From NCBI GenBank assembly GCA_903839725.1, contig CAIMDG010000002.1, forward strand, positions 241,117 through 305,116: a stretch of DNA of 64,000 nt. Direction: 5' to 3'. Positions 1,512 to 62,062 of the stretch are shown here, one piece after another; the first letter of the stretch is position 1, and every line of letters starts with the position of its first letter. Below the pieces are notes generated by a model. That model was not told the DNA's origin and did no database searches. It saw only the letters and a program-made list of their open reading frames with translations. Origin of the DNA: an uncultured bacterium (lineage in GTDB: Bacteria; Patescibacteriota; Minisyncoccia; Phycocordibacterales; PALSA-1337). A program made the position numbers and the translations under genes.

Positions 1512-1544
1512 ATATGTTGTTGTAAAGAACTAGGTTGATGTTTT

Positions 1545-10878: not shown

Positions 10879-11168
10879 AACAAAACTAGAGTTTTTGCAA
10901 ATCGTACATACTTCCTTTTTCGATACTCTAGGTAGGGCTCCCAATAAATTAAATGGCTCTGTAAAGCCATTATAATGGGTGCATCCCGAGGGGTGCTCTA
11001 CTAGCCTATCAAGCTCACAAACATTGTCAATCGGGGCTATACACAGCCACAAATAATGACTTACTGTCAATTTTTGTTGTAGCAAATTGAATGTTGCCCG
11101 TGAGTTAGAGTGAGGAGGTTGTTTGTGTGTTCCTGATTGAGATGACAACGGTTAATGGGTTGACTGTT

Positions 11169-14280: not shown

Positions 14281-15348
14281 TTATGACGAACCGAGGAATG
14301 GAGTAATCCAACCTTCATTTGGATAAGGGATGCATGAATATCCTACGGTCATATAACACATTTGAGTACCTATTTGGTATTTGCCCAACAACTGAGTAGC
14401 TCCCAATGCGGAATATGTCATATACATCTGAGTACCCATTGTGTAAGAAAGTAACACAGGGAATGTTGGGGGAAGTGGACTCATATAAATCAACCATACA
14501 TCGCCACTACAGGTACAATACACTGTTGAAGAAATGAGAGGGGTTCCAAAATCTGTACCAGTTTGAGCTACAGCTGTATTTGGAGAAAAGAATGTTACTA
14601 ATTTTGTAAGAGAATCCTGCATAATACCTGCGACTCCGGTTGGTTTTGTATTTGCTTTAGCCATATTTTTCCTTGCGAGTTCAACAAATTTCTCACGCAT
14701 ATTGGTCGTAGTTGAAAGATCTTTGAGTACTTGATTCTTCAGGTCAGTAGACAATGGTGGTAGCCCTTGTTTTGCAGCGATAGCATTTGTTGCTGCAAAC
14801 ATTTCATCTACATGTGCCAAATTGGGATTTGTATAATCAATTGTAGAAGCTGAACCAGGTTGTGAAGGGGTGGTTTGTGGAACAAATGTGGTTTCATTTG
14901 GTAGGTCCTTAACCAATCCTTGCTGAGCAAGACTAGGGGCAACATAACTGCTCCCAGGTGTGCTTGTAGGTTGTAACAGAGCCGTTTTATTGGATCTATT
15001 GAGTACTTTTATGGTTGAAGGTCCAACATATCCCGTACCAGAAGAAAGACCGTTTGGTGTCAAAATATCATTTCTATACATTTCCTGGAAACGAATGACT
15101 GCTTGTTTCGTAAGTTGACCAAAATACATACTTTCTTGACCAGGCGATCCTATACCTGAGGCACTAATTTGTGTTTTGGAATCACTATTCAGAACTTTCT
15201 GTAATTCACGGACATCACTACCAGACATCCCTACCTGTAAAGAGCGAGTGAACTGAAAATTTGACGCGTTGGCATGTTGAGCATAGACACTAGCAACACT
15301 CACGACACACATGAGTAAAAAATATGAGAATCGATTTGATATATTCAT
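14281..15348 (-). CDS. Secreted protein with a peptidoglycan-binding (PG_binding_1-like) domain
   Basis: Signal peptide MNISNRFSYFLLMCVVSVASVYA; segment LQVGMSGSDVRELQKVLN...FGQLTKQAVIRFQEMY resembles a PG-binding domain. Confidence 0.5.
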   Translation of the reverse strand: MNISNRFSYFLLMCVVSVASVYAQHANASNFQFTRSLQVGMSGSDVRELQKVLNSDSKTQISASGIGSPGQESMYFGQLTKQAVIRFQEMYRNDILTPNGLSSGTGYVGPSTIKVLNRSNKTALLQPTSTPGSSYVAPSLAQQGLVKDLPNETTFVPQTTPSQPGSASTIDYTNPNLAHVDEMFAATNAIAAKQGLPPLSTDLKNQVLKDLSTTTNMREKFVELARKNMAKANTKPTGVAGIMQDSLTKLVTFFSPNTAVAQTGTDFGTPLISSTVYCTCSGDVWLIYMSPLPPTFPVLLSYTMGTQMYMTYSALGATQLLGKYQIGTQMCYMTVGYSCIPYPNEGWITPFLGSS

Positions 15349-15447: not shown

Positions 15448-16323
15448 ATGGCGTTATCCTACCCACACAGACAAACAATTATCATTGGAGTGATATGTCT
15501 TGTTGCAATTGCAGCTGTTGCCTTTTACACTCAACGAAATAAAGCAGAGACAAATGATGCATTAGGAGTCCAGGCATCAGCAAAAGAAAATACCCGAGAC
15601 GTAACTCTTACCGCAACATCAACAAACTGGCAAAAAGACTTTTTCACTGTATCTACAAGTACAAAATCAACACAAATTTCTAAGTCAGGAAATACCACAT
15701 CTCCTACTCTTACTGACACAGTAGGGAAGGATTTCTTTACTCGATTCATGGTACTCAAGCAAGCAGGTCAAACAACTGATCAAGAGTCAGTCAAGAACGC
15801 AATGGATCAAACGATTGCAAATGCCGCTGCATCAGCTGCACAACCAAAAATATATTCTCTCAGTAACATAAAAATTTCTACAGACACAAGTCTAGATGCT
15901 ATTCATATGTATGCAAACACTGTAGGTTCAACTCTTCTTACAAACATCTCAAGACAAGATCCAACAGAAATTGCCATGAATGCTCTCGACAGACAAAACA
16001 TGGATGAACTCAAAAATATTGACCCTATTATCTCTGGCTACCAAAAAGCAATCAGTGAACTACTTCTCGTAAACGTTCCGCAAGATTTGGCGTCAAGTCA
16101 TGTTGGTATTATTAATGGACTCAGTATATTGCTGTACGTATCTCAAGGATTACGCCGTATCCAAGAAGACTCGATGCAATCAATGGTTTCATTGGGATTA
16201 TATACGACTGGCCAAGATACACTTCGAGCTTCACTTCTCGATACACAAGCGTATCTTCAGGTAAAAAATGTTCCCGTACTTTCAACAGAACCAGGATATT
16301 TATTCCTCACCATAACAAAATAA
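15448..16323 (+). CDS. Hypothetical membrane-anchored protein (first gene of the co-directional T4SS-like cluster)
   Basis: N-terminal TM helix IIIGVICLVAIAAVAFY; 291 aa. Confidence 0.4.
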   Translation: MALSYPHRQTIIIGVICLVAIAAVAFYTQRNKAETNDALGVQASAKENTRDVTLTATSTNWQKDFFTVSTSTKSTQISKSGNTTSPTLTDTVGKDFFTRFMVLKQAGQTTDQESVKNAMDQTIANAAASAAQPKIYSLSNIKISTDTSLDAIHMYANTVGSTLLTNISRQDPTEIAMNALDRQNMDELKNIDPIISGYQKAISELLLVNVPQDLASSHVGIINGLSILLYVSQGLRRIQEDSMQSMVSLGLYTTGQDTLRASLLDTQAYLQVKNVPVLSTEPGYLFLTITK

Positions 16324-16333
16324 TAGTATTACT

Positions 16334-17989
16334 ATGAAGACCTCATTCAAAAAATTTATTGCAACGATCTGTCTCATCAGTATCCTGGTTCCTTCTGTTG
16401 CATTTGTTTCATATCCGAAACCAGCAAATGCAATACTCGGGGTTCAGATTGGTACTGATTGGGATTTCAATAACATTATGGCGCACCTCAAGGATTTCGT
16501 CCTTGATAAACTCGCAGTTACGATCGCAAAACAAATCCTCCACCAACTTACCATGAGTGTCATCGACTGGATCAATGGCGGTTTCAATGGAAGTCCTTCA
16601 TTCCTCACCAACCCTCAATCATTCTTTCTTGATGCTGCAGACCAGGTAACTGGAGTATTCCTTGCATCAGAAACAACCCCTCTCAAAAACCTGTGTGGAA
16701 ACTTGGGAATAGACATCGGTTTGGCTCTCGCATATGGTCAAGTTGCACCGATAAATGCACGTTACAAATGTACACTCGGAAAGATATTTAGTAATGTTCA
16801 AAATCTTCCAAATAGAATAACTGTCCAAGGAAAAAGTCTAACCAAGTTCATGCAAGGGGACTTTTCTCAAGGTGGATGGAAAGGATTCTTGTCGCTTAGT
16901 CAAAATCCAAAAAATAATGCGACCGGAGCATATCTACGAGCACACGGGGATCTCTTAGAAGCTATTGGCATACGAAAAAATGCATTAAACAAAAAACTTG
17001 CTGATGGTAGCGGATTCCTTTCATGGGATTCATGTGAGACACTTGATGCATCTGAAGCAACAATATCACTAGGAGCATCGTCACCAAATGCTAGTTTTTC
17101 TGATCTGCAATCTAATGCTGTCCAAAATGCAAATGATAATGGGGGAGTGGGGCAAGCATCCATCGATACTGGGGATGGAACAAGTGTTCAGGCGAAACTG
17201 GATGCCAATGGAAATATGACCTATAAAGACTGTCACACGGAAACTCCAGGATCTCTCGTTTCTTCACAAATAGTAGGAGCCATGAATGTGCCCTCAGTAG
17301 AGCTTGAATTGGCAAATGATATCAATGCGGTTATCAATGCACTTATTACACAATTGATCACGCAACTCATGAGTGGAGGTCTCGGCGCTTTGAGCAAGTC
17401 TGGATCTGGAGGTGGATTGTCAGCAACTCGAAATGTCATCAGAGACCTCGAACAGAGACAGGCGCAAACAGCTGGCAGTGTAAATCTCACCGGTTCAAAT
17501 AACACTGTTGCAGCCATCAAGGCTCAGTACGACACGGCTGTAAGTCTTTTGAAGACAAGTAAAACAAACTATCAATCTGCTCGCAGTTGTTTTGCAAATA
17601 AGACAGGCTTGTCAGCAACACAACAAACGTATGCACTCAATCAAATCGCCCTTATCGATACCGCAATCAATACACGTGTAAATCCACTCTTAAATCAAAT
17701 GCTTCAAAAGCAGGCGGATCTTGCGTCCTCAATGCCTACACTGAATGTAAGTAGTACAACTGATGCACAAAATCTTGATGCACTACAGGGTCAGCTTGAT
17801 ACATTGCAAGGATCTATAGCAGGAAGCAATAGTTCGCAGGTATATCAAAGCGGTTCAAACACAACAAATACATCCTCGACAACCACCTCGGGTATTGCTG
17901 CTACTGATCTCCAGAATACGCGAACAAGCACAACACAGTTCAATGCCGAAGCTTCACAATTCTTAAACCTGTGCCTTAACCTCCGCTAA
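16334..17989 (+). CDS. Hypothetical secreted protein
   Basis: Signal peptide; 551 aa; S/T/N/Q-rich C-terminus. Confidence 0.4.
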   Translation: MKTSFKKFIATICLISILVPSVAFVSYPKPANAILGVQIGTDWDFNNIMAHLKDFVLDKLAVTIAKQILHQLTMSVIDWINGGFNGSPSFLTNPQSFFLDAADQVTGVFLASETTPLKNLCGNLGIDIGLALAYGQVAPINARYKCTLGKIFSNVQNLPNRITVQGKSLTKFMQGDFSQGGWKGFLSLSQNPKNNATGAYLRAHGDLLEAIGIRKNALNKKLADGSGFLSWDSCETLDASEATISLGASSPNASFSDLQSNAVQNANDNGGVGQASIDTGDGTSVQAKLDANGNMTYKDCHTETPGSLVSSQIVGAMNVPSVELELANDINAVINALITQLITQLMSGGLGALSKSGSGGGLSATRNVIRDLEQRQAQTAGSVNLTGSNNTVAAIKAQYDTAVSLLKTSKTNYQSARSCFANKTGLSATQQTYALNQIALIDTAINTRVNPLLNQMLQKQADLASSMPTLNVSSTTDAQNLDALQGQLDTLQGSIAGSNSSQVYQSGSNTTNTSSTTTSGIAATDLQNTRTSTTQFNAEASQFLNLCLNLR

Positions 17990-17997
17990 TATCTTTT

Positions 17998-20304
17998 ATG
18001 AACATGAAACGTTTTAATCGCTACATAATTCCAGTCAGTGCAATCGCTATTGTAGTGATACTCTTTTCAGTTCAATTTGCATTAGCGCAAGCTAACAATG
18101 CAAACTCAGGAGATAGTGGTACTAGTTTCCTCAAGTGGTTTGGACTCAATCTTCCACAGTTTATCGCCGAATCTCTCGCTCACTTATTCTTCACCCTGCA
18201 AACGATTTGTAGTTGGTTCATTGCTGTTGCTGGAGCATTGCTCAACTTTTCAATTAACCAAACCCTCAATATAAAGTCATTCGTTGAACATACTCCAGCT
18301 ATATATAGTGTATGGAGAGCCGTTCGCGACATCTCGGGCATGATCATTATCTTCTCACTGCTCTACGCTGCACTACGTTTGATACTGGGCTTTGATGCAA
18401 AGTTTGGGGATCTCATCAAAAATATCGTGATTGCTGGCCTACTCATAAACTTCAGTTTCTTTGTAACAGGAGTTGGAATAGACGCATCAAACGTTATATC
18501 GATACAACTGTACAATACGATTGCTCCAGCAAATAGTTTGAATCCTGCCAATATGAACCCAAGTAATATTGAACAGTCACTTGGTGATGGAGGTCTTTCA
18601 GACGTGTTCATGAGATCACTTAATGTAAGTAGTTTGTACGACAACAGTGCCAGCCTTTCTGCAACAGCAAAGAATGATGGTGGTGATTGGACTTTGCCTC
18701 TTTCTATCATCATTCGAGGAGTAACTTCGATTATCATCATGGTGACAGCGGCGCTCAGCTTCTTCTTCGCGGCCTTGGCATTCATGATTAGAATTGTTGT
18801 ATTAATCTTATTGCTCGGATTTTCACCAATTTGGTTTGCGTCCCACGTACTTCCTCAACTCAAAGAATACTCTTCAAAATGGACTGACCTCTACGTTGGG
18901 CAGCTTCTATTCATGCCGGTATATCTTCTTTTGATGTATTTTGCATTAAATGTTCTTACCACGAGTGATTATTTGCAAAATGTTGGACAACAGATATCTA
19001 CTGGTTCAATGTCAGATCAGGGTAAACTTATGGGTTTGGTGATAAACGCTATCTTCGTCATCATCATGATCAATATACCTCTTTTGGCAGCCGTCAAAAT
19101 AGGAGGTGCCACAACAAGTTGGATCAATACCAAGAAATATGGTGCGGAGGGAGTATCGAAGTGGATCGGTAGTCGCACTGGTAATTATGTAGGTAAAAAT
19201 ACAGTTGGTAAGGCTGCTTACGCCTTGAATGATAGTAAGGCTATGAAGAATTTTGCTGCATTCATGCCAGGTCTTGGCGGGGCAGTTTCGAAGGGATTGG
19301 GCAAGGCAGGTAATGCTGGGTTTGGCATGAAGAAGGGTGGATATGAAGATAGTCTCAAGGAAACAAAGAAGGAACAGGCGGCTATGTTCAAGAAGATTGG
19401 AAGTGTTGATAGAAGTAAATATGATTCAGAAGAAGCCTTCCAGAAGGCACAAGCTCAAGCAGGTGAATTCCAAAAACAATATGCGAAGAATGTTGAGTCG
19501 AGTATTCTGTCAACTCCAATACAGACTATTGCTGATAAGATCGGAAATGATAGAAGAAAAGCTGCAAGAATTGCTGAAGTTGATGCAAAGGGAATCGCTC
19601 ATTATGGTTCAGAGGAAGAATATCAAAATGCTCGAGCTGAAGCTGCAAAAGATGCGTGGTATGCAGCACCAAATGTTGGAAAGGTTCTTAGTTATATGTT
19701 TGACAGTAGGGCACACAAAGAAAGTGGCTTTACTTTGAACGAAGAGGCTAATATAAAACAAACTGAAGCAGATCACAAAGCAATAACCGAGCGAATAGAG
19801 GAAACGACTAAGAAAGAAACGGATGCACTGAATGCGGTTGTGGACAGAATCAAAGACAAAGATACTGCTATAGAAAAAGTTGAAGAGGAGATAGAGAAAT
19901 TTAACAGTAACCCAAGTCTAAATCCAATAGAGGAGGAACAGAAGAATAGAGCATTAAGGAATTTGGAAGATTTGAAGAGAGAGAAGCAAACAATAGAGGC
20001 GACGAAAGGAACAAAGGAAATGCTTCAAGATAGAATCAATCAATTTGGAGACTTCAAAGCATTAGCAAATGCTGGAAAGTTTGAGAAGCTTATGGCCACA
20101 ACAACAGTATTGACTGAAGCAGACAAGAAAAAAATATTTGAACTTGCAGTAAAAAGAATACCGCTCACAGGAACGATAGAACGTGTAAACAAGACAAAGG
20201 AAAAAGAGAGGGAAGGATCAATCCTTAGTGAATTCGCAAAGAAAGCAAAAGAAAGTGGCGGTGGAGGTAGTGAACCAAAAGAAGAAAAGCCAAAGACTAC
20301 ATAA
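17998..20304 (+). CDS. VirB6/TrbL-like polytopic membrane protein (T4SS channel component) with a long charged C-terminal tail
   Basis: Signal peptide plus at least 6 TM helices in the first 400 aa, then about 350 aa of K/E-rich coiled-coil-like tail. This architecture is typical of VirB6/TrbL/ConG; assignment is by architecture only. Confidence 0.45.
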   Translation: MNMKRFNRYIIPVSAIAIVVILFSVQFALAQANNANSGDSGTSFLKWFGLNLPQFIAESLAHLFFTLQTICSWFIAVAGALLNFSINQTLNIKSFVEHTPAIYSVWRAVRDISGMIIIFSLLYAALRLILGFDAKFGDLIKNIVIAGLLINFSFFVTGVGIDASNVISIQLYNTIAPANSLNPANMNPSNIEQSLGDGGLSDVFMRSLNVSSLYDNSASLSATAKNDGGDWTLPLSIIIRGVTSIIIMVTAALSFFFAALAFMIRIVVLILLLGFSPIWFASHVLPQLKEYSSKWTDLYVGQLLFMPVYLLLMYFALNVLTTSDYLQNVGQQISTGSMSDQGKLMGLVINAIFVIIMINIPLLAAVKIGGATTSWINTKKYGAEGVSKWIGSRTGNYVGKNTVGKAAYALNDSKAMKNFAAFMPGLGGAVSKGLGKAGNAGFGMKKGGYEDSLKETKKEQAAMFKKIGSVDRSKYDSEEAFQKAQAQAGEFQKQYAKNVESSILSTPIQTIADKIGNDRRKAARIAEVDAKGIAHYGSEEEYQNARAEAAKDAWYAAPNVGKVLSYMFDSRAHKESGFTLNEEANIKQTEADHKAITERIEETTKKETDALNAVVDRIKDKDTAIEKVEEEIEKFNSNPSLNPIEEEQKNRALRNLEDLKREKQTIEATKGTKEMLQDRINQFGDFKALANAGKFEKLMATTTVLTEADKKKIFELAVKRIPLTGTIERVNKTKEKEREGSILSEFAKKAKESGGGGSEPKEEKPKTT

Positions 20305-20310
20305 ATACCC

Positions 20311-20970
20311 ATGAAACAATTTACTCAACAAGAAATCCAAGATCAATTTGATAGACTTCCTACGGAAGTACAGAATGCTATCAATGCAAGTGACTTGCCT
20401 GACAAGATCAGCAGTATAGGCAAAAAGTACGCACTGCATACTGATCAACTTGGTGAACTTGTTGATGAAATAGGTCTCGTTATACTCGGACTTCGACGAT
20501 CATCAGCATTCATAGGTGACATGATCGAGCGCGCTTCACTCAGCTCAAAAGATGCTCATGCAATCGCTGAGGAGGTTAACACTAGTATCTTTTCGACGAT
20601 AAAAGCACATCTCCAAAACGTTGAAAGATTAAATACTGACTCAGCGGATATGGTTCAAGCGGCATCAGATATATCAACGCTCGAACGAGCAGGGGATTTC
20701 ACTATAGACAAGCAAGCTGTTGAGCCAAAGATTGACGTAACAGCAGCTGACAGGCCTCAAATCCTAGATAATGTAGAATATCCAAAGCCTACAACTCCAA
20801 CACCATATAAACAAATTGATCCATTGATAGACCACTTATTGAGCAACCCTGTTTCATCGACCGTCCAAAACGTAAAAATCGTTGAGGCACCAACCAAACC
20901 TACTGAAACTAAGCCCACAGCTCCACCACTAGTACGTAAAGTAGACACTTACCGAGAACCAATTAAATAA
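20311..20970 (+). CDS. Hypothetical protein (T4SS-like cluster)
   Basis: 219-aa ORF, no recognisable motif; P/T-rich C-terminus. Confidence 0.35.
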   Translation: MKQFTQQEIQDQFDRLPTEVQNAINASDLPDKISSIGKKYALHTDQLGELVDEIGLVILGLRRSSAFIGDMIERASLSSKDAHAIAEEVNTSIFSTIKAHLQNVERLNTDSADMVQAASDISTLERAGDFTIDKQAVEPKIDVTAADRPQILDNVEYPKPTTPTPYKQIDPLIDHLLSNPVSSTVQNVKIVEAPTKPTETKPTAPPLVRKVDTYREPIK

Positions 20971-21020
20971 TCGAGTTATACTCTTAGCTCCCACGACATA
21001 CCTCTGATATAATAGAGTCA

Positions 21021-21455
21021 ATGCGTTTTCAAGTTCCCCAATTCATCGAGATTGAAGATAAGATCTTCGGATCACTGACTCTCAAGCAGTTTATTTATCT
21101 TGCTGGAGGAGGCGGGCTTTCATTCTTGGTATATGTATTCATTGGCAATCTCTTCATCTCACTCATACCGATCGCTATTATTCTTGGTATTTCTGGTGCT
21201 CTCGCTTTTTATAAAATAAACAGAAAGCCCTTTGTGGCAGTACTTGAATCTGCATTCAAATATTATCTTGGTACAAAACTCTACATTTGGAAAAAAGAAG
21301 AAAAACCTCGTGCTGATAATGTACAGATGGCAGTAAAGGATGCGAAATTATACGCATCAGTTATGGTTCCTAAGATTTCTGATAGCAAACTCAAGGACCT
21401 AACATGGAGTCTCGATATCAAAGAAAGTATGTATTCAAACAATAACCAGAGATAA
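21021..21455 (+). CDS. VirB3/PrgI-like small membrane protein
   Basis: 144 aa with two adjacent TM helices (LAGGGGLSFLVYVFIGNLF; LIPIAIILGISGALAFY); lies immediately upstream of the VirB4 ORFs as in Gram-positive-type T4SS. Confidence 0.45.
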   Translation: MRFQVPQFIEIEDKIFGSLTLKQFIYLAGGGGLSFLVYVFIGNLFISLIPIAIILGISGALAFYKINRKPFVAVLESAFKYYLGTKLYIWKKEEKPRADNVQMAVKDAKLYASVMVPKISDSKLKDLTWSLDIKESMYSNNNQR

Positions 21456-21456
21456 T

Positions 21457-22098
21457 ATGGCGAACAAATCCCAAACAACTCAAGATTTCGTACCCGTACA
21501 AGAAGTACGTGATGGTGTCGTTATTCTCAAGAATGGGGGAATGCGTTCAATCGTATTGGCATCATCATTGAACTTTGCCCTCAAATCACAAGATGAACAA
21601 GGTTCTATTTTGATGCAATTTCAAAACTTCTTGAATTCTCTCGATTTCTCAGTACAAATATTCATACAATCAAAAAAGCTTGATATACGACCATATCTTG
21701 CACTTCTCGAAGATCGCTACAAAGACCAAGTGACTGAACTTATGAAGATACAGGTGCGAGAATATATCGAATTCATCCGAACATTCGTTGAAAGTACTAG
21801 TATTATGTCCAAGAGTTTCTTCGTAGTTATTCCGTATGATCCACCAATGATCAATTCCAAGAATAATATACTTGGATCAATGATGCCAAGTAAAAATAAA
21901 TCAGACACTGCAAAACAAACTGCTGATGCTCAATTCCAGGAATACAGAAGTCAGCTTGAACAGCGCGTAGCCGTTGTTGAACAGGGACTCGTTCGTTGTG
22001 GAGTTCGTACCGCTGAGCTTGGTACCGAAGAAGTGGTAGAATTGTTCTACAAGCTCTTCAACCCAGGAGAAACCGAGAAACCAATACAAATAACATGA
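21457..22098 (+). CDS. VirB4-like N-terminal domain protein (apparently the separately encoded N-terminal part of VirB4)
   Basis: VQEVRDGVVILKNGGMRSIVLASSLNFALKSQDEQ matches the conserved VirB4/TrbE N-terminal pattern (kdGsl.av.eV.Gidf.l.seeeq). It overlaps the next ORF by 4 nt (ATGA). Confidence 0.45.
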   Translation: MANKSQTTQDFVPVQEVRDGVVILKNGGMRSIVLASSLNFALKSQDEQGSILMQFQNFLNSLDFSVQIFIQSKKLDIRPYLALLEDRYKDQVTELMKIQVREYIEFIRTFVESTSIMSKSFFVVIPYDPPMINSKNNILGSMMPSKNKSDTAKQTADAQFQEYRSQLEQRVAVVEQGLVRCGVRTAELGTEEVVELFYKLFNPGETEKPIQIT

Positions 22099-23903
22099 GT
22101 ATATTTTCAAACATATTTAAAAAGAAAGACTCACCAATCGTCTCTATCCTCCCTGAAGAGATCTACCAGGCCGGTGTTCTCGAACTCAAGGATGTTATTG
22201 CTCCTTCTGCACTCAAGGTAACACCAAAAGAGATCAATCTTGGTGAAAAGGTTGGCCGTACACTCTTTGTTATTTCATATCCACGCTTCCTTGATGAAAG
22301 TTGGTTTGCTCCTATCATCAACCTCGACAAGGTATTCAACGTTTCTATATTTATTCATCCTGTTGACACTGCTCGAGTTCTCCGTCATTTCCAGAAGAAG
22401 GTTGCTGAAGTACAAAGTCAGATATCACGCCGAGAAGAGAAGGGTCTGGTGCGTGATCCAAGTCTCGATACTGCGTATCAGGACCTCGAAATGCTTCGTG
22501 ACCAGCTCATGCAAGCGCAAGAACACCTCTTTGATGTTGGTGTGTATATCACTATTTACGCCAACAATGACAGTGAATTGGACAAGCTCGAATCTGAAAT
22601 CAAATCAATTCTCGAGTCAAAACTTGTCTATGTTAAGCCTGCTCTATTCCAGCAAGAACAAGGATTCAAGAGTGTTATTCCAATAGCCGACGACCAGTTG
22701 GCAGTGTACTCGAAGCTCAATTCTTCGCCACTTTCAAGTCTTTTCCCATTTGTTTCATTCGACCTTACTTCAGACAAGGGTATTCTCTATGGTATCAACC
22801 GCCACAACTCATCATTGGTGCTTTTTGATCGTTACAGTCTCGAAAACTACAACTCCGTAACTTTTGCTACTGCCGGTGCCGGAAAATCATACTGTACGAA
22901 ACTAGAAATCCTCCGCACACTGATGTTCGATGTCGATGTTCTCGTGATTGACCCTGAAAAAGAATACGAATACATGGCCGAAGCAACTGGTGGAAAATAT
23001 TTCAACATATCTCTTAACTCAGAACACCATATCAACCCATTCGACCTTCCTATAGCTCATGAAGGGGAGTCGGCGTCTGACATTCTCCGCTCGAACATCA
23101 TCAACTTGGTTGGATTGTTCCGTATTATGCTTGGAGGTTTGACCCAAGAGGAAGATGCTATCGTCGATCGTGCTATTTCTGAAACATATGCTTTGAAGGA
23201 TATTACTCCAGAATCTGATTTCAGAAATATTGAACCACCGCTTCTTTCAGACTTTGAACTCGTATTGGCAGGAATGGAAGGCGCCGATTCGTTGGTACAG
23301 CGTTTGTCAAAATATACCAAGGGAACATGGGCAGGATTCATCAATCGCCCCTCGAACGTAGATATCAACAATAAATTCGTTGTCTTTTCATTGCGCGACA
23401 TGGAAGATGAACTCAAGCCGGTAGCTATGTATATCGTTACACACTATATTTGGAATGCTATTCGTAAGAATCTCAAGAAACGTCTTCTTGTTATCGATGA
23501 GGCATGGTGGATGATGAAATCCGAAGACACAGCTTCATTCTTGTTCGGTTTGGCAAAACGTGGACGCAAATACTTCCTCGGACTTTCTACTATTACACAG
23601 GACGTGGACGACTTCTTGAAATCTCCATATGGTATGCCAATCGTATCAAACTCATCTATCCAAATTCTTCTCAAACAATCACCAACTGTTATTGATCACA
23701 TTCAGCAAACATTCAACCTTACTGATGAAGAGAAATACTTGCTTCTCGAATCAGATGTTGGAGAGGGAATATTCTTCGTAGGACTCAAACACGTTGCCCT
23801 CAAAATCATTGGTTCATATACAGAAGATCAAATTATCACTACAAACCCTGCTCAAGTTATGCAAATACGCCAGGCCAAGAAAGATCTCGAGAATGCAGGA
23901 TAA
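22095..23903 (+). CDS. virB4: VirB4/TraC/ConE-family T4SS ATPase
   Basis: Walker A TFATAGAGKSY, Walker B LLVIDEAWWMM, and the surrounding motifs are typical of VirB4/CagE; 602 aa. Confidence 0.8.
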   Translation: MSIFSNIFKKKDSPIVSILPEEIYQAGVLELKDVIAPSALKVTPKEINLGEKVGRTLFVISYPRFLDESWFAPIINLDKVFNVSIFIHPVDTARVLRHFQKKVAEVQSQISRREEKGLVRDPSLDTAYQDLEMLRDQLMQAQEHLFDVGVYITIYANNDSELDKLESEIKSILESKLVYVKPALFQQEQGFKSVIPIADDQLAVYSKLNSSPLSSLFPFVSFDLTSDKGILYGINRHNSSLVLFDRYSLENYNSVTFATAGAGKSYCTKLEILRTLMFDVDVLVIDPEKEYEYMAEATGGKYFNISLNSEHHINPFDLPIAHEGESASDILRSNIINLVGLFRIMLGGLTQEEDAIVDRAISETYALKDITPESDFRNIEPPLLSDFELVLAGMEGADSLVQRLSKYTKGTWAGFINRPSNVDINNKFVVFSLRDMEDELKPVAMYIVTHYIWNAIRKNLKKRLLVIDEAWWMMKSEDTASFLFGLAKRGRKYFLGLSTITQDVDDFLKSPYGMPIVSNSSIQILLKQSPTVIDHIQQTFNLTDEEKYLLLESDVGEGIFFVGLKHVALKIIGSYTEDQIITTNPAQVMQIRQAKKDLENAG

Positions 23904-23928
23904 TAAAAGGGGGTGATATAATGAATCT

Positions 23929-25140
23929 ATGGCAGAACAAATCGGAAAACCCACATATAGAGTAGGAATTATGGGAGGAATTGTGTGGCTTACCATAGCT
24001 ACTGTGGCTGATTTGTTTACTCTTATCCCATTTGTTGGGGATTTTGTTGGGCCTATATTCTGGGTATGTTTCAGTATATATCTCTGGAAAATCGGTTGTG
24101 GTTTTATAAATGCACGACGATTGGCTACTGAAGTCGTGTCTGCTGTAGGGGAGATGATACCTGTAGTACAAGAATTGCCACTCATTCTTGCAGGAGTACT
24201 TGTTGTCCTTATCATGATTCGATTTGAAGATAAAACGGGTATAAGTGTTATGCCTGCAAAAGGTAAATTTGGAATAGCTAAAAAGGGGTCAGATGGTAAT
24301 TACCTCAATCAAGGTAAGACAAAGGAGTTATTCAATAAAGGCTACGGAAACCCACTCAATGAAAATGGAGTACGAGCTCCACAAACAGGGAATACGTACC
24401 GACCTGAACAAGGTGGTCAAACAATAACAGCCAATATGTCAGGGGCTGGGAGATCATTTAATGTGAATGGTGTCAGAGTGCCATCACAACCAAGAGCTTC
24501 TGTGGCAGGAGTGTCGAATACGGCTACGGCTTACAGTGAACCAACTTTTTCGAAAGGGCCATCAACTGGTTATGATGCAAAAAATGCATTTATGTCTTCA
24601 CAAAAAGGTGCCAACCCCGATAAAGATCTCGCAGATGCTCAGGCGGCGTATGAAAAAGCTAAGCAATCAAATGTTGATGTAGAAAGTTCACAGCACGCAT
24701 ACTCTGAACGAAATATGGATGAGGCATACAGGAATATGCAATCAGCAAAAGAAAATCAGAGAAGAAAGGCTGAGCTTGGCGACAAAGCGTACGCAACTGA
24801 ACATAAAGCTAATCTTGAATCTAGGTGGGATGAACAAAATAAACGAGAGGAGGGGGATGGTTCAATAAAAATGAATACCAGAAGAGTAGGTGATGGTGCA
24901 AATACGACCAATACTTCCTCATCAGAACTTGGCACAGATTCTTCAACCGGTATGGAATGGTCTCATGCAGGAATTATACGAAAAATGGATTCCGCTACAG
25001 GTGGACGAGCAGGGAGATTGGCTGACAAAATAGGTAAAGTCGCAGGCGTTGATGGATCTGTTGCTCATTCGCTTGCTACCGGAGAAGGTATTCAGGCGGG
25101 TACATCTAAAAAAGAGCTTGGGGACAAAATGAACCCATAA
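23929..25140 (+). CDS. Hypothetical polytopic membrane protein with a polar N/G/Q/K-rich C-terminal tail (T4SS-like cluster)
   Basis: 3-4 TM helices in the first 110 aa; 403 aa. Confidence 0.4.
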   Translation: MAEQIGKPTYRVGIMGGIVWLTIATVADLFTLIPFVGDFVGPIFWVCFSIYLWKIGCGFINARRLATEVVSAVGEMIPVVQELPLILAGVLVVLIMIRFEDKTGISVMPAKGKFGIAKKGSDGNYLNQGKTKELFNKGYGNPLNENGVRAPQTGNTYRPEQGGQTITANMSGAGRSFNVNGVRVPSQPRASVAGVSNTATAYSEPTFSKGPSTGYDAKNAFMSSQKGANPDKDLADAQAAYEKAKQSNVDVESSQHAYSERNMDEAYRNMQSAKENQRRKAELGDKAYATEHKANLESRWDEQNKREEGDGSIKMNTRRVGDGANTTNTSSSELGTDSSTGMEWSHAGIIRKMDSATGGRAGRLADKIGKVAGVDGSVAHSLATGEGIQAGTSKKELGDKMNP

Positions 25141-25202
25141 TTATTGTTATAACTGGTGATAACTTCTTATGCCCATTCAGATATTCATGATAAAATACTG
25201 TC

Positions 25203-26231
25203 ATGAATCGTCGTTTTATTTCTCTTTTTATACTCTCATTCGTACTCCTTACCGGCATTGCACATGCCCAAATCCCGACACTTTCTAGTACTGGACTCAA
25301 TCTGAATGCGTCAACAAATAACCCAATACCAGGACAAAACGTCACCATCACTGCGACAAGCTATAGTGCCGACTTGGATACGTCTCAAATTTCATGGATT
25401 GTAAATGGAAAACTCTTTCAAAGTGGTATTGGTATGAAGAAGCTCGATGTCAAAGCACCCCCTCTCGGCAAAGAATTGAGTATTGATGTGAACGCTGTCA
25501 CTTCAAGTGGCAGAAAAATGATTTCAAACATTGTCGTTGGATCTGGCTCAGTTGATTTGATCATAGAGTCTGATGGCTACGTACCACCTCTCTTTCTCGG
25601 AAAAATTGCTCCTGTAGTACAAAACAAAGTTACTGTTATTGCCATGCCTCATATCGCTGATTCTTCAGGCAAGGAATATGATCCGAAAGATCTCGTGTAC
25701 AAGTGGGAGCGAAATGACAGTGTTCTTCAGGACCAATCAGGTTATGGAAAACAATCTGTTTCTATAAAGGGAACTGTGCTGCCACGAGGGTATACTCTCA
25801 ATGTCACTGTGCAATCTCGTGATAATAAAGCTCAAGCAAAAGGTTCGATAGGTATCGGTTACGCAGGCCCTTCTGCGCAGTTTTATGTGAATGATTCCTT
25901 GTATGGGGTATTTTACAACCGAGCAATTAAAAATTCACTCTCAATCGGTTCAAGTAGGGAATCGGGAGTGCGTGTAGTTCCTTATGGCTTCAATAAGCCA
26001 TCAAATGACATTGGTGATCTATCTCTTGCATGGACAATCAATAGTACTGATCATCCAGAATTAAATACGAATGAATCTATCATCATCCGTGCGCCGGAAA
26101 ATTCTGACGGAGTTTCAAATGTTTCACTCAGTATAAATAATACAAAAGAAATACTTCAAAGTGTGCAAGCAAATTTTTCTGTAAAATTTAAGAAAAATAC
26201 AGGTTCAGCAAGTGATGCGGTAACTTTTTAA
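25203..26231 (+). CDS. Hypothetical secreted protein (T4SS-like cluster)
   Basis: Signal peptide MNRRFISLFILSFVLLTGIAHA; beta-rich, 342 aa. Confidence 0.4.
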   Translation: MNRRFISLFILSFVLLTGIAHAQIPTLSSTGLNLNASTNNPIPGQNVTITATSYSADLDTSQISWIVNGKLFQSGIGMKKLDVKAPPLGKELSIDVNAVTSSGRKMISNIVVGSGSVDLIIESDGYVPPLFLGKIAPVVQNKVTVIAMPHIADSSGKEYDPKDLVYKWERNDSVLQDQSGYGKQSVSIKGTVLPRGYTLNVTVQSRDNKAQAKGSIGIGYAGPSAQFYVNDSLYGVFYNRAIKNSLSIGSSRESGVRVVPYGFNKPSNDIGDLSLAWTINSTDHPELNTNESIIIRAPENSDGVSNVSLSINNTKEILQSVQANFSVKFKKNTGSASDAVTF

Positions 26232-26234
26232 ATC

Positions 26235-27452
26235 ATGAATTCATTTTACACAAAAATACATATCATCATTCTTGTTCTTATTCTTAGTATTTTCTGCATA
26301 CCAACAGTCCAATCGACACATGCACAAAATGGAAATATCCAAGGTGGTTATACACTTCTCGAACCACTTCCAGATATTACAAATGGGGGAGGGTCAGTAA
26401 CAAATGTACAATTTCAGGATTATATTGGATACGCATTCAATCTCATGATTGCTTTGGCCGCTGTTGCTGCAGTCTTCATGATTGTTTGGGGAGGTCTCCA
26501 ATACATGAGTACAGATGCATGGGAAGGGAAGTCTGCCGGTATATCCAAACTCAAAAATGCAGTGCTTGGTTTATTACTTATTCTTTGCTCCTATTTAATA
26601 CTGAGAACAATAGACCCAAGACTCGTTACAATACCGTCAACACTGGTACCTCCACTTACAGGACTTGACTACACTCCACAAATCAATAATTTCCTCAAAG
26701 GGATTACTGGTGAAATGAATAGCATGCGAGTTGAAAATGCACAAATACTTACTGATGTGAACTCAGCAAGACAAACTGTTGATGATTTGGAAATACAGAT
26801 TCAAGAGCTTATGGGTGAAGAAGGTTGGACTGATAGTTCAGACTATGAATCAGTATGTCAAACAGAAAACACAGATTTGCCAGCAGCATGTGCACAATAT
26901 GCAGCACTTATCGACCAACAAAAAACTGCTGAAGTTGCCATATCTGGTGGAGTCGCAAGAGGTGTCATGAATGACATAGTTGTCGGATGTACAGCCGGTT
27001 CTCCTGACGGGGCTTCGGACGCAGACCTGGCAACATGTCGATCAAAACTCTTGGCAGCTCGCGACAAACGTGTTGCGGAACTTAACGCACTTGGTGATCC
27101 TGCCGCTGCAGCCAAAGTAATGGACTATGGAGTATACGCATCTACATTACTCGACATGAATCAGTCAGTTACAAGCAAGATCGGCTCGGGAAACTGGATT
27201 ACCAGCGGACTCAAAAGTACTACCGAGGCAGCACTCTATGCAACAGGTCCAGTTAATGGTTTGATTGGTGGTGTTGTTATAAATGCAACTAGTAATGCAT
27301 GGGATAGATCAAATGCCGCCTTAGCTGTTACGGAGATTAACTCTGCCATGAGTAGAAACGTGGGACATATAACTGATCCAACAATAAAAGCAAAGTTAGT
27401 TAGCCAAGCAACAGCCATCGTAAGATCACTAGGTGGTACTCCAACTTTCTAA
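26235..27452 (+). CDS. VirB2/TrbC-like pilin domain (N-terminal ~130 aa) fused to a ~270-aa C-terminal extension
   Basis: Signal peptide, then two hydrophobic helices (AFNLMIALAAVAAVFMIVWGGLQYM; AVLGLLLILCSYLILRTI) separated by a short polar loop, as in TrbC/VirB2 pilins; assignment by architecture only. Confidence 0.3.
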   Translation: MNSFYTKIHIIILVLILSIFCIPTVQSTHAQNGNIQGGYTLLEPLPDITNGGGSVTNVQFQDYIGYAFNLMIALAAVAAVFMIVWGGLQYMSTDAWEGKSAGISKLKNAVLGLLLILCSYLILRTIDPRLVTIPSTLVPPLTGLDYTPQINNFLKGITGEMNSMRVENAQILTDVNSARQTVDDLEIQIQELMGEEGWTDSSDYESVCQTENTDLPAACAQYAALIDQQKTAEVAISGGVARGVMNDIVVGCTAGSPDGASDADLATCRSKLLAARDKRVAELNALGDPAAAAKVMDYGVYASTLLDMNQSVTSKIGSGNWITSGLKSTTEAALYATGPVNGLIGGVVINATSNAWDRSNAALAVTEINSAMSRNVGHITDPTIKAKLVSQATAIVRSLGGTPTF

Positions 27453-27482
27453 TAAATTAATGATGAAAATCTATTAAAAGAT

Positions 27483-28754
27483 ATGAAAAACCGAAATACA
27501 CAAATAATCATAGCGTTCATCATTCTGATCCTTGTGGCCGCGGCTATCTTTTGGTTTTTCTTTTTGAAAACTACACCGGTAACAACTCCAGGTGGGGATA
27601 CGACTCAACCAGGCTTTTCTCCTTTTGGAACAAGCACCCGTAGGACAGGCCCTGGAACGCCTCCTGGACAAGGAGGGGCCACAAGTACTACTAGCGCGAG
27701 TCCTATTCCTGTACTACGCCTTCTTAGTAATACGCCTGTTGGAGGATATGGCGCAAGCACTACTGCAAGCACAACAATTATTCGCTGGGTTGACCGTGGA
27801 CGAGGTAGTATACTCGAAACAACAGGGGATTCATTGGATATCAAGAAACTCTCAAATACTCTCGTTCCTCGTATATATCAAAGTCAGTGGAATAAAAACA
27901 TAAGTGCATTCATCGCCTCAGTAATACCTGAGAATAGTGCTCGCCAGAATACTATCTATACAGAAATGATGCCTCAAGCATCTTCGACCGGTGGCACTGA
28001 CTCAAGTACTTCTCTTTTTGAACTCAAAGGAAAAACTCTACCAGATGGTATTACTTCCTACTCAGTCTCACCAAAGAAAGACAAGGTGTTCTTCTTCAGT
28101 GTCCAAAATGGACGAGGTACAGGATACATATCAGCAATTACCGGTGGGGCTCTTACCCAAATCTTCGACACCCCTATCACTCAAGTTACAACTGATTGGC
28201 CAGAAGAAAATACTATTGTTATAACAACAAAGGGCGTTTCAAATGAAAATGGATTCTTGTATTTCATCAATCCAAAAACTGGTGTATGGAAAAAGATTGC
28301 GGGACCTATCCCAGGACTTACAGCTGTAGTAAACCACGATGCTTCGTACGCTCTTATATCTGCACGAGGAGTGGATGGAACAATTCAGACTGGAATATAT
28401 CGAGTAGCAAGCAGTACGATGATTAATGCCGTGATTCAAACGCTCGCAGATAAGTGTACGTGGGGTAACTTCTACAAAAATCTTATATACTGTGCAGTTC
28501 CAAGCAGACCAGTTGCTGGCTCATACCCAGAAGATTGGTATACAGGAATAGTTTCATTCTCAGATAAAATATGGCAAATGAATGCAACCACGGGAGAAAT
28601 TAACTTGGTTGCAAATATCATCGGCCAGAGTGATCGTCCAATAGATGGCTTCAATCTTGGTACAGATTCAAAAGATAACTTCCTCTTCTTCATGAATAAG
28701 ACCGACTTGTCATTATGGTCATTAGACTTGGTAAGTAGTAAAAGTACAAACTAA
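27483..28754 (+). CDS. Hypothetical membrane-anchored protein with a P/G/T-rich linker and beta-rich C-domain (last gene of the cluster)
   Basis: N-terminal TM IIIAFIILILVAAAIFWFFFL; 423 aa. Confidence 0.4.
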   Translation: MKNRNTQIIIAFIILILVAAAIFWFFFLKTTPVTTPGGDTTQPGFSPFGTSTRRTGPGTPPGQGGATSTTSASPIPVLRLLSNTPVGGYGASTTASTTIIRWVDRGRGSILETTGDSLDIKKLSNTLVPRIYQSQWNKNISAFIASVIPENSARQNTIYTEMMPQASSTGGTDSSTSLFELKGKTLPDGITSYSVSPKKDKVFFFSVQNGRGTGYISAITGGALTQIFDTPITQVTTDWPEENTIVITTKGVSNENGFLYFINPKTGVWKKIAGPIPGLTAVVNHDASYALISARGVDGTIQTGIYRVASSTMINAVIQTLADKCTWGNFYKNLIYCAVPSRPVAGSYPEDWYTGIVSFSDKIWQMNATTGEINLVANIIGQSDRPIDGFNLGTDSKDNFLFFMNKTDLSLWSLDLVSSKSTN

Positions 28755-28760
28755 TACATT

Positions 28761-28792
28761 AAAAAATCCCACCGATCTGGTGGGATTTTTTA
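28761..28792. terminator. Bidirectional rho-independent terminator (A-tract, 8-bp stem atcccacc/ggtgggat, T-tract)
   Basis: Between the convergent genes 27483..28754 (+) and yidC (-). Confidence 0.6.
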
Positions 28793-28798
28793 ATGCGA

Positions 28799-29548
28799 CT
28801 ATTCTTTGAAATATTTCTTACGAATATATAATTCTTGACCGAGGGTGAATAGGGAACTGACTGACCAATATATAGCAATTATAGAAGCTGCTTGGGGAAA
28901 CTGTGACGGAATAAGCCAATATGTTGAAGCGAAAGCGAGGAGAGGCAACATGTATTTCATCTGTGTTGTCATTGAGCCAGATAACTTTGATGCAAAGTCA
29001 GAAGGAAGAACACCTCCATTTTTAGCAACCATCTCCTTGTGCTGACGTGAAGCAATAGAATAATGCATCTGGAAGAACTGTATAATTGCTGTCACAAGAG
29101 ACAATATAATGCTCTTTCCACTAATATTGAGACCGAGGAGGGTCAATGTAACTACGGGAACATGAACGAAGCTATATAACAATTCTGGATGGATTGCGGG
29201 ACTGATCTTATAAAACACTGAGATCAGTGCGATAAGTATCGGTAATTGAATAATAAGCAAAAGAACACCTGAAAAGGGCTTAATATTCTTTGTTTTGTAC
29301 AATTCCATCACTTTTGCAGCTTGCAACTGACGATCTTTACTGTATTGGGCCTTGATTTTGTTTGCCTCGGGCTCAATTTCTTTCATGCGAACCTGAGTGA
29401 GGAGGGCACTCTTCGAAAGAGGGAAGAGAATAAGTCGAATAATAACGGTAAATATAATAACAGCAACACCGACATCTACCCATGGAAGTACATCCATAAT
29501 ACCGACAAGCCCATTATAGAGAGGGCGAAATACAATTTCATTATACAT
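28799..29548 (-). CDS. yidC: Membrane protein insertase YidC/Oxa1 family (short form)
   Basis: 249 aa with the conserved YidC core TM pattern; gene order rpmH-rnpA-yidC. Confidence 0.85.
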   Translation of the reverse strand: MYNEIVFRPLYNGLVGIMDVLPWVDVGVAVIIFTVIIRLILFPLSKSALLTQVRMKEIEPEANKIKAQYSKDRQLQAAKVMELYKTKNIKPFSGVLLLIIQLPILIALISVFYKISPAIHPELLYSFVHVPVVTLTLLGLNISGKSIILSLVTAIIQFFQMHYSIASRQHKEMVAKNGGVLPSDFASKLSGSMTTQMKYMLPLLAFASTYWLIPSQFPQAASIIAIYWSVSSLFTLGQELYIRKKYFKE

Positions 29549-29559
29549 AGGCTTTAATG

Positions 29560-29895
29560 TTACCTCAAAAGTCTCGATTTCACAAAGACTTCCTTTACTT
29601 CAGTTTCAATAGCTTTTTGAGTTGCCTGGAATAATTGTGGCTTGGCAATAATCGCAATATGGGTGTTAGGAACTATTTCTGAAAAAATTACTCTTACTGC
29701 TTCATACATTTTCTTTCTAAATTTATTGCGCTGCACAGCTGTTTTAGCGATTTTCACAGGAACTGTTGTAGAAATTCTGGTATCAGGAGATCCGGGAAGG
29801 GCACGTAACAGAAAAAGGGCAGAGTGAGATACTCTCCCATTTTTCATAACTAATGCGAATTGTTCACCAGACAATCTCTGAGAACGAGGCAACAT
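29560..29895 (-). CDS. rnpA: Ribonuclease P protein component
   Basis: MLPRSQRLSGEQFALVMKNGRVSHSALFLL matches the RnpA N-terminus; lies immediately downstream of rpmH. Confidence 0.85.
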   Translation of the reverse strand: MLPRSQRLSGEQFALVMKNGRVSHSALFLLRALPGSPDTRISTTVPVKIAKTAVQRNKFRKKMYEAVRVIFSEIVPNTHIAIIAKPQLFQATQKAIETEVKEVFVKSRLLR

Positions 29896-29896
29896 G

Positions 29897-30031
29897 TTAT
29901 ACAGCTACGCGCTTGCGACCCTTGGCTCGGCGACGTGCCAAAACCTTGCGACCAGGAGCAGTTTTCATGCGAACACGAAATCCGTGTGACTTGGCACGCT
30001 TTCTTTTGTTTGGATTATACGTAAATGACAT
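29897..30031 (-). CDS. rpmH: 50S ribosomal protein L34
   Basis: Hand translation of the minus strand gives [44 protein letters not shown], the L34 consensus. Below the ORF-track size cut-off. Confidence 0.85.
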
Positions 30032-30071
30032 GGGGATACTATAGTGTAAAAAGCTAATATATGCAAGCTAG

Positions 30072-30187
30072 GAGGCACAAGGGGTGTCTGTACTCATTTT
30101 CTGTACAAGTTTGTAAACATTGTGGTACGCGGTGTAATGTACATGTCTCTAAACTTGTACAGAAAATGAGTACAGACACCCCTTGTG
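30072..30187. repeat. 38-bp perfect inverted repeat (ggcacaaggggtgtctgtactcattttctgtacaagtt ... aacttgtacagaaaatgagtacagacaccccttgtgcc) flanking a 40-nt spacer, in the rpmH-dnaA intergenic region
   Basis: Hand-verified complementarity; DnaA-box-like TTATCaACA and cTcTCCACA motifs lie just downstream, around 30230-30260. Confidence 0.6.
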
Positions 30188-42409: not shown

Positions 42410-43099
42410 ATGAAAACAAACAAGATTGGCCTGTTGGCCATGTCGGTAATGGTCGTCATGTTGGCGACCGGGTGTGCAGTAACCAAGAATAACATCACTC
42501 AAGATGCGTCTGGTTATCGGAACACGTCGTTCCAGATCGGGACTCCGACCATAGACACCCACACGCCGGGCATGCACTTCAAGAAACCGGTCATGATTCC
42601 GGTTCCTACGGGTGCCAAGCAGCCCAAGCAACTCTCCCAAGCCCAAGGTCAGCAAGACCAACAGGTGCAGGGGGCAGTGGTGGTTCCGGATGTGTCGAGC
42701 ATCTGCTCGACGTGCGACGTTCAAGTCGCATCGTCGGATTGGACGAGTTCCACTCCGAACAACCAACAGACCCAAGACTTGCAAGCCTCGGAACCCAAGC
42801 CTCAATACCTGATGGCTTGGGAGGAAGGAGCTTCGCAAGCCTCTCCCGGAAACGTCATCGTTCATGATGGCATCTGGGGAAATGGTTGGGTCACTGGTGG
42901 GACTTGGTTCGGCGGTAGTCGTTCCTCCGGTTGGTTCGGAGGTTCGCGCGGCCATAGTATTCACAACAGATCAGTTGTGAGCCGTGGGCACTACAGTAGT
43001 TGTCGTCCAACGGTCAGTCGCACTCGTTGTGTGACGCCAAGCCGCTCGACGTGCACAACGCCGGCGCGTAGTGGTCATTCAGGCCATTCAGGCCGCTAG
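42410..43099 (+). CDS. Lipoprotein (lipobox LATGC) with a G/S/R/T-rich low-complexity C-terminus; gene lies in a GC-rich islet
   Basis: Signal peptide plus a Cys lipobox. Local GC is visibly higher than the surroundings, and the antisense ORF 42374..42964 is a GC artefact. Confidence 0.45.
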   Translation: MKTNKIGLLAMSVMVVMLATGCAVTKNNITQDASGYRNTSFQIGTPTIDTHTPGMHFKKPVMIPVPTGAKQPKQLSQAQGQQDQQVQGAVVVPDVSSICSTCDVQVASSDWTSSTPNNQQTQDLQASEPKPQYLMAWEEGASQASPGNVIVHDGIWGNGWVTGGTWFGGSRSSGWFGGSRGHSIHNRSVVSRGHYSSCRPTVSRTRCVTPSRSTCTTPARSGHSGHSGR

Positions 43100-62060: not shown

Positions 62061-62062
62061 TG

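Follow-up and report, generated by a model that had tools for sequence, protein, structure and literature searches.

Does a gene cluster that resembles conjugation machinery, yet comes with neither a relaxase nor a coupling protein, belong to a conjugative element or to an apparatus of another kind? The question arises from a 64,000-nt stretch of an uncultured Patescibacteria genome (GenBank assembly GCA_903839725.1, contig CAIMDG010000002.1, positions 241,117 to 305,116; hereafter, the window). A first-pass annotation, made from the sequence alone, had described a type IV secretion system (T4SS)-like cluster there, with a VirB4 ATPase encoded in two pieces. Our analysis makes it very probable that the cluster is the chromosomal, origin-adjacent T4SS of most ultra-small Patescibacteria, that it has a two-gene VirB4 and descended from monoderm conjugation machinery (of the mating-pair-formation class MPF-FATA, pGO1/pSK41-like), and that it most likely serves the epibiotic lifestyle and not conjugation.

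The cluster comprises 11 plus-strand open reading frames (ORFs) that span ~13 kb (15448-28754). The ORF map reproduced the coordinates of the first-pass annotation, which had described eleven consecutive plus-strand genes with tight spacing or overlaps: the intergenic gaps range from -4 to 62 nt (from g1 to g11, in order: 10, 8, 6, 50, 1, -4, 25, 62, 3 and 30 nt). Guanine-cytosine (GC) content is uniform and equals that of the flanks. The members of the cluster, with the divergent gene before it and the hairpin after it, are listed below (aa, amino acids; TM, transmembrane).

g0, 14281-15348, minus strand: secreted protein, divergently oriented, that combines a PG_binding_1 domain with a Cys-rich C-terminal domain
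g1, 15448-16323, plus strand: bitopic membrane protein with a predicted TM segment at aa 10-28 and a predicted all-alpha ectodomain; Patescibacteria-specific
g2, 16334-17989, plus strand: 551-aa secreted or anchored protein with invariant Cys residues and a C-terminal coiled coil
g3, 17998-20304, plus strand: 768-aa polytopic membrane protein, an extended VirB6/TrbL-like protein whose charged cytoplasmic tail measures 388 aa
g4, 20311-20970, plus strand: 219-aa soluble protein with a Pro-rich tail
g5, 21021-21455, plus strand: 144-aa VirB3/PrgI-family protein, a two-TM hairpin
g6, 21457-22098, plus strand: 213-aa VirB4 N-terminal segment as a separate protein (TrsD/TraD-type; PF26593 'TraC-like')
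g7, 22095-23903, plus strand: 602-aa VirB4 ATPase body (TrsE-type) with Walker A and Walker B
g8, 23929-25140, plus strand: membrane protein with ~3 TM segments at its N-terminus, followed by a long low-complexity tail
g9, 25203-26231, plus strand: secreted beta-rich protein, possibly Ig-like, with a signal peptide
g10, 26235-27452, plus strand: 405-aa protein with a VirB2-like T4SS pilin module (aa ~1-130) and a ~270-aa lineage-variable C-terminal domain
g11, 27483-28754, plus strand: bitopic membrane protein with a TM segment at aa 8-26, a Pro/Gly/Thr linker and a probable beta-propeller ectodomain
hairpin, 28756-28796, no strand: 18-bp stem separating g11 from the convergent yidC, probably a bidirectional terminator at the end of the cluster

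On one side the cluster is flanked by uvrD/pcrA and ksgA, and on the other by yidC, rnpA, dnaA and dnaN, which places it beside the chromosomal origin region. A scan restricted to one genome per species recovered 551 related loci among at least 599 pattern matches. Nearly all of the 551 are titled as Patescibacteria lineages, including Paceibacterota, Parcubacteria, Taylor-, Zambryski- and Campbellbacteria, and many carry generic titles, 'Saccharibacteria' or plain 'bacterium'. Our comparison set consisted of the best 80 of the 551 loci, ranked by similarity to the VirB4 body g7 (77-98% identity). Synteny was assessed by tblastn of 18 window proteins against these 80 loci, and all counts out of 38 refer to the genomes in which both flanks were found. 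The block uvrD-ksgA-cluster-yidC-rnpA-dnaA-dnaN is colinear in 37 of the 38. Within it, the VirB2-like pilin gene lies close to virB4, and dnaA, rnpA and ksgA are in the vicinity.

Over these genomes, median identity was 80% for g7, 62% for the VirB4 N-terminal protein g6, 59% for DnaA, 56% for VirB3, 55% for UvrD, 51% for DnaN and about 30% for the accessory proteins. The identity of g7 exceeded that of DnaA in every comparison (38/38). By this measure the VirB4 body is under strong constraint and evolves more slowly than DnaA. Its identity to plasmid VirB4s is at most 37%, and, judged by sequence identity, the VirB4 of the window belongs to a Patescibacteria-specific clade.

As the first-pass annotation had stated, VirB4 is encoded by two ORFs (213 and 602 aa), the stop of the first overlapping the start of the second as ATGA (22095-22098). 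The second, g7, is a VirB4-family ATPase with a Walker A motif (ATAGAGKS, aa 258) and a Walker B motif (LLVIDE, aa 464). It matched P-loop_TraG, AAA_10 and DUF87 in Pfam (E 6e-25) and the structure of a VirB4 C-terminal domain (4AG5, E 5.6e-37), as well as residues 446-735 of TrwK. The first, g6, had no match in our local copy of Pfam, which lacks or misses PF26593, and its profile retrieved nothing significant from PDB sequences (best E 0.84); its homologues in a public collection are all tagged PF26593 'TraC-like' in precomputed annotation. In NCBIfam, g6 corresponded to the N-terminal ~200 residues in families of full-length VirB4 and also matched the TrsD/TraD family. The matches were to the VirB4 of Mycoplasma integrative conjugative elements (ICEs; VirB4_plasma, E 5.9e-10, profile positions 99-233 of 894), TrsD/TraD (E 4e-6, below the curated whole-protein cut-off, positions 10-144 of 201), CD1110 VirB4 (E 1e-4, positions 2-104 of 752) and TrbE (E 1.7e-4, positions 53-205 of 852).

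Alignments show where VirB4 is divided. Taken together, g6 and g7 align colinearly with the fused 797-aa clostridial VirB4 of Clostridium botulinum pCDC3875: residues 5-206 of g6 correspond to its residues 24-198 (hhalign, E 2.7e-6), and g7 to the same protein from about residue 186 to 757. The alignment of g7 with pSK41 TrsE runs from residue 9 (TrsE residue 8) through residue 571 (TrsE residue 617; E 3e-37, 23% identity), and TrsE is itself preceded by TrsD; VirB4 is therefore divided at the same point as in pGO1/pSK41-type systems. Because g7 begins where TrsE begins, g6 is a TrsD-type protein, and the pair consists of a TrsD/TraD-type protein directly upstream of a shortened VirB4 (TrsE). 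The g6 profile compared with the single pSK41 TrsD sequence gave no significant match (E 0.015, probability 3%). The split highlighted by the first-pass annotation is thus real, but it is not peculiar to this locus, being the TrsD/TrsE arrangement of pGO1/pSK41-type Gram-positive conjugation systems.

VirB3 and VirB6 partners are encoded near virB4, the latter with weak support. The first-pass annotation had recognised a VirB3/PrgI-like two-TM protein, a VirB6/TrbL-like protein with a long charged tail and a VirB2/TrbC-like pilin fused to a 270-aa extension. All of its recognisable component assignments were upheld, those of VirB6 and of the window's pilin copy leaning on weak or near-threshold scores together with orthologues. 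The VirB3-like g5 matched Pfam PrgI above the gathering threshold (E 8.6e-10), forms a hydrophobic hairpin (aa 24-57) and was found in 38/38 genomes. Also present in 38/38, g3 has seven predicted hydrophobic segments followed by its tail, 34% of which is charged. The window copy matched TrbL weakly (E 0.005, below threshold), with a weak precomputed match to TrbL_3, and 5 of 31 orthologues matched TrbL (best E 4e-5).

The pilin module of g10 scored 25.5 bits against T4SS_pilin (PF18895), just below the 26.6-bit cut-off, and 46 of 48 orthologues matched this family (best E 2.6e-9); g10 also matched the NCBIfam Mbov_0395 pilin-like family (E 0.007). Its conserved part (aa ~1-130) consists of a signal peptide, a YTLLxPLP motif and two TM helices. 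The tails are not alignable across the clade; they reach at least 100 aa in 43 of 54 orthologues, and a few orthologues have almost no tail. A regular-expression search found an H..D...HxH (LAS/M15-like) motif in the tails of 8 of 54 orthologues, and single orthologues matched Peptidase_M15_4, NlpC/P60, CHAP or He_PIG (examples of the orthologues in the comparison loci are L040:12922-13770, L046:13008-13979 and L062:12286-13131). The LAS/M15-like tails had no match among PDB sequences; the regular expression and one Pfam match (E 1e-3) provide a hint, from which we tentatively propose hydrolase-like domains in some tails.

The cluster is real, was read correctly by the first-pass annotation, and is already known from the literature of 2023-2025. 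VirB4 was reported in 2417 of 3035 Patescibacteria genomes, nearly all of these VirB4s forming a monophyletic clade nested in MPF-FATA, with TrsD beside VirB4 and with PrgI/VirB3, VirB6 and VirB2-like pilins nearby (Quinonero-Coronel 2025, Microb Genom; PMC12102498). In the same study, relaxases were found in 103 genomes only, VirD4-like matches were mostly distant from virB4, VirB8 was rarely found in Patescibacteria, and the Paceibacteria location adjoined dnaA, dnaN, rnpA, ksgA and rpmH. Transposon insertion sequencing (Tn-seq) showed that the homologous locus of Southlakia epibionticum, SEML1_0006-0019, is essential for epibiotic growth; pilins were noted there, and a recognisable relaxase or coupling protein was lacking (Wang 2023, Cell; PMC10633639). 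Both papers are summarised in a FEMS review of December 2025 (PMC12857230). Our additions to this picture are minor: the identity of the split point as TrsD/TrsE, the higher conservation of the VirB4 body than of DnaA, the variable pilin tail, the all-alpha g1 and the leaderless-type transcription units described below.

Compared with known systems, the cluster is closest in composition and location to the Patescibacteria-clade T4SS (PMC12102498) and the S. epibionticum locus (PMC10633639). It shares with them VirB4 and an adjacent TrsD-type gene, PrgI/VirB3, VirB6 and a VirB2-like pilin, the lack of a relaxase in the locus, a chromosomal place beside dnaA, dnaN, rnpA and ksgA, and a monoderm-type composition without VirB7, VirB9 and VirB10. 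The Saccharimonadia locus has about six short divergent pilins in an array, with peptidase and lysozyme genes nearby, whereas the Paceibacteria-type locus of the window has a single pilin module with a long variable tail and its own accessory genes g1, g2, g9 and g11. With the conjugation systems of Gram-positive cocci, the trs region of pGO1/pSK41 and the tra region of pIP501 (MPF-FATA subclass), the cluster shares the order VirB3-like TrsC, TrsD (227 aa) and TrsE/VirB4 (672 aa) and the same split point. As in the window, a TrbL-family VirB6 is encoded on pSK41 too, along with a small pilin-like gene of the 'CagC family'. The latter (25115-25432 in pSK41, locus L085 of our set), just upstream of TrsC, bears the annotation 'CagC family type IV secretion system protein', that is, VirB2-like, so Patescibacteria may not be alone among monoderm systems in having a pilin-like module beside VirB3-TrsD-TrsE. 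Unlike the cluster, pSK41 is plasmid-borne and conjugative and encodes the VirD4-like TrsK, a relaxase, topoisomerase III, SSB and a CHAP hydrolase.

The CD1110-family VirB4s of clostridial and other Bacillota conjugative plasmids and ICEs (for example, pCDC3875) are 31-35% identical to g7. They share the local order VirB6, PrgI and VirB4, and g6 and g7 are together colinear with the 797-aa protein; in these systems, by contrast, VirB4 is made as one polypeptide, genes for VirD4 and an SLT hydrolase lie alongside, and a relaxase is on the plasmid. Ptl of Bordetella, VirB of Brucella and ComB of Helicobacter serve protein export or DNA uptake, not conjugation. They resemble the cluster in being VirB4-powered and in lacking a relaxase and a type IV coupling protein (T4CP) in the locus (PMC12857230). 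These three are diderm systems with a VirB7/9/10 outer-membrane core, whereas the homology of the cluster is to the monoderm class.

Could the two VirB4 ORFs be the product of a frameshift, a sequencing error or pseudogenisation? The overlapping ATGA at the junction and the lack of a match for g6 in the local Pfam copy would fit such an origin. Against it, a separate N-terminal ORF was present in 80/80 related species genomes, where it stops at aa ~210-213 and is followed by a fresh ATG; the spacing from stop to start is mostly -4 to +30 nt, with a few cases of up to several hundred nt, and the second ORF lies in the same frame as the first in some genomes and in a different frame in others. 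The N-terminal ORF is identical on at least 18 independent contigs, three of which were inspected and carry the same split layout. Its homologues are 211-230 aa long in all of the top 120 of more than 8000, and an alignment of the N-terminal ORF has 45 invariant columns and a mean column identity of 67%. Given also that pSK41 TrsD/TrsE shares the architecture, this explanation is refuted and retains practically no probability: the split, which the first-pass annotation had proposed to check across relatives, is genuine and ancient. A second possibility is that the cluster is an ordinary ICE or its remnant, with relaxase and coupling protein encoded outside the window. Its VirB4, VirB3 and VirB6 are indeed homologous to conjugation proteins (best plasmid matches, 27-37% identity), and VirD4-like matches occur elsewhere in many Patescibacteria genomes (PMC12102498). 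Family scans covered the window ORFs of at least 200 aa, and among these we found no VirD4/TcpA-type coupling protein or relaxase, in agreement with the first-pass annotation, and no integrase; the three of these ORFs that matched no Pfam family lack a Walker A motif. There is no flanking tRNA, no repeat and no compositional shift that would indicate a mobile-element context. The same insertion context, with ksgA on one side and yidC-rnpA-dnaA on the other, recurs in 37/38 species-level genomes, VirB4 evolves more slowly than DnaA in its ATPase body, and relaxases are known from just 103 of 3035 Patescibacteria genomes (PMC12102498). The ICE explanation is thus largely refuted and very improbable. 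With housekeeping flanks, class-wide synteny, uniform GC content and no relaxase, coupling protein or integrase in the scanned ORFs, the cluster is not an ICE or another mobile element, and the earlier proposal of a secretion or contact-dependent apparatus is supported.

An apparatus of this kind could also import DNA, as a DNA-uptake or nucleotide-scavenging machine like Helicobacter ComB or the archaeal Ced T4SS-like importers, which likewise have no relaxase. Such a role would accord with the lack of a relaxase and a T4CP in the locus, with the absence of de novo nucleotide synthesis in Patescibacteria (PMC10633639), and with the T4SS genes of class ABY1, which adjoin comF, recG and radA (PMC12102498). 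In S. epibionticum, however, competence depends on ComEC and is dispensable, whereas the T4SS is essential (PMC10633639; PMC12857230), and the family scans found no DNA-binding or competence genes in or beside the cluster. We therefore consider DNA import an unlikely, minority alternative to host interaction. The T4SS serving an epibiotic lifestyle is favoured over conjugation by the lack of a relaxase and coupling protein in the locus, together with its fixed place by the replication origin. Several points weigh against this reading. The sequence-level identification of g3 as VirB6 is weak, and the window yielded no candidate that could be identified as VirB8-like or VirB1-like. A distal coupling protein may exist in this genome, as VirD4-like genes occur elsewhere in most Patescibacteria genomes (PMC12102498), so that the lack of a coupling protein holds for the window only. 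The 80 loci were picked by similarity to the VirB4 body, which slightly favours it in the conservation comparison. Finally, the genetically tested example is the S. epibionticum locus only (PMC10633639), with none from Paceibacteria.

The accessory proteins are less readily classified. The best topological candidate for VirB8 was g1, found in 26/38 genomes. Its AlphaFold2 model is confident over residues ~90-290 (block-mean predicted local distance difference test score, ~79-98) and consists of helices only; it had no fold match in PDB (best E 0.48), and g1 belongs to no Pfam or NCBIfam family. The assignment as VirB8 was rejected on the grounds of this confident but all-alpha model and the missing fold match. 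Profiles of g9 and g11 did not match the structures of VirB8, TcpC or PrgL, and the profiles of g1, g2, g9 and g11 gave at most sub-threshold hints among PDB sequences. Among these hints were weak matches of g9 (37/38 genomes) to the Ig-like protein Hoc (E 0.008) and of g11 (38/38 genomes) to a TolB beta-propeller (E 0.09). Alignments of g2, found in 37/38 genomes, revealed conserved N-terminal motifs (WINxGFxGSP, GDFxQGGW and TPGS) and the invariant Cys residues; its AlphaFold2 model was of low confidence (predicted template modelling score, 0.36), and the fold search with it gave coiled-coil noise and nothing significant. g4 has no TM segment, occurs in 22/38 genomes and has no credible match in Pfam or NCBIfam; other NCBIfam matches of g1, g2, g4 and g5 were at chance level.

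Both g8, detectable in 7/38 genomes, and g0, detected in 13/38, are poorly conserved. The first-pass annotation had described g0 as a divergent secreted peptidoglycan-binding protein, and its signal-peptide-like N-terminus and PG_binding_1 match (Pfam, E 2e-6) bear this out. It is possibly a cell-wall-active accessory, and its membership in the system is uncertain. As for a VirB1-like hydrolase, the cluster contains no hydrolase domain and g0 has PG_binding_1 only; an M23/LysM protein is encoded 4 kb upstream (9790-11148).

Direct inspection found a TAnAAT box (often TGnTAnAAT) ending ~3-9 nt before the ATG in 13 of 66 window ORFs, and Shine-Dalgarno motifs were near-absent (7 of 66). Boxes placed so close to the ATG suggest leaderless mRNAs. 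Those that touch the cluster lie at 15348 (minus strand), 15448, 21021, 23929 and 25203, and from these positions the cluster appears to be divided into the leaderless-type units g1-g4, g5-g7, g8 and g9-g11, in which the later genes would depend on tight spacing or overlap. A scan for the sigma-70 consensus returned fewer promoter-like sites than shuffled sequences and was not used. In the region 15448-30185, the plus-strand cluster converges on the minus-strand yidC-rnpA(-rpmH) directly beside dnaA, an orientation retained in 37/38 related genomes. If oriC is at dnaA, transcription of the cluster runs head-on into the leftward replication fork; the GC skew of the window was too noisy for placing oriC.

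Elsewhere in the window, we observed a type III hammerhead ribozyme (1543-1598, minus strand; Rfam RF00008, 50.5 bits against a gathering threshold of 48.5) whose CUGAUGA...GAAAC core is intact and that has a GUC site, ~32 nt upstream of an S-adenosylmethionine-dependent methyltransferase ORF (756-1511, minus strand). Type IV pilus genes are also present, encoding a PilB/T2SSE ATPase (E 1e-114) and a PilM-like protein (40558-42231, minus strand, and 57750-58709, plus strand), so that type IV pilus machinery is present alongside the T4SS, a combination also reported for Saccharibacteria. No Pfam family was matched by three ORFs of 229-498 aa (6236-7732, 42410-43099 and 54651-55460, all plus strand); the 498-aa product combines an acidic disordered N-terminus with one TM segment and an ectodomain, and the 229-aa product is lipoprotein-like with a Gly/Ser/Trp-rich tail. 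A tRNA-Leu(GAG) (62062-62146, minus strand) lies within the mechanically called ORF 61873-62232 (plus strand), which is therefore probably spurious.

Building on the observed gene content, homologies, conserved split, synteny and conservation, we infer how the apparatus might assemble, what it might carry and how it might act on a host. By analogy with known systems, the motor would be a VirB4 ATPase in which the TrsD-type N-terminal piece and the TrsE-type body are separate polypeptides, produced from overlapping, presumably translationally coupled genes and presumably reassembled into the usual hexamer. This motor would dock onto VirB3/PrgI and the extended VirB6 channel protein in a single membrane. 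The wall-spanning, host-contacting part may comprise the VirB2-like pilin module with its variable ectodomain and the secreted or anchored g1, g2, g9 and g11. In its epibiotic role, the apparatus could export proteins to the host cell or form a contact conduit or a pilus. Extrapolated from the essentiality of the locus by Tn-seq in S. epibionticum, a role in host interaction is more likely than conjugation. A bolder proposal, which we offer tentatively and regard as rather doubtful, is that the Paceibacteria VirB2-like 'pilin' is more than a simple pilus subunit and acts as a conserved module for export and anchoring, displaying towards the host an ectodomain that differs between lineages and is a cell-wall hydrolase (M15/LAS-like, NlpC/P60 or CHAP) in some of them. 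The two-piece VirB4 machine would then be a conduit for piercing the host or feeding on it, essential to the cell and given its specificity by exchange of the pilin tail.

The window provides a clean Paceibacteria example that confirms the published picture and introduces no new kind of system. The details it contributes are the universality and age of the TrsD/TrsE-type split, the very slow evolution of the VirB4 body suggested by its identity levels, the variable pilin tail and the negative result on a VirB8 fold for g1. The system matters in its own right: nearly all members of a very large group of host-dependent bacteria carry it, and the homologue proved essential in the only species tested.

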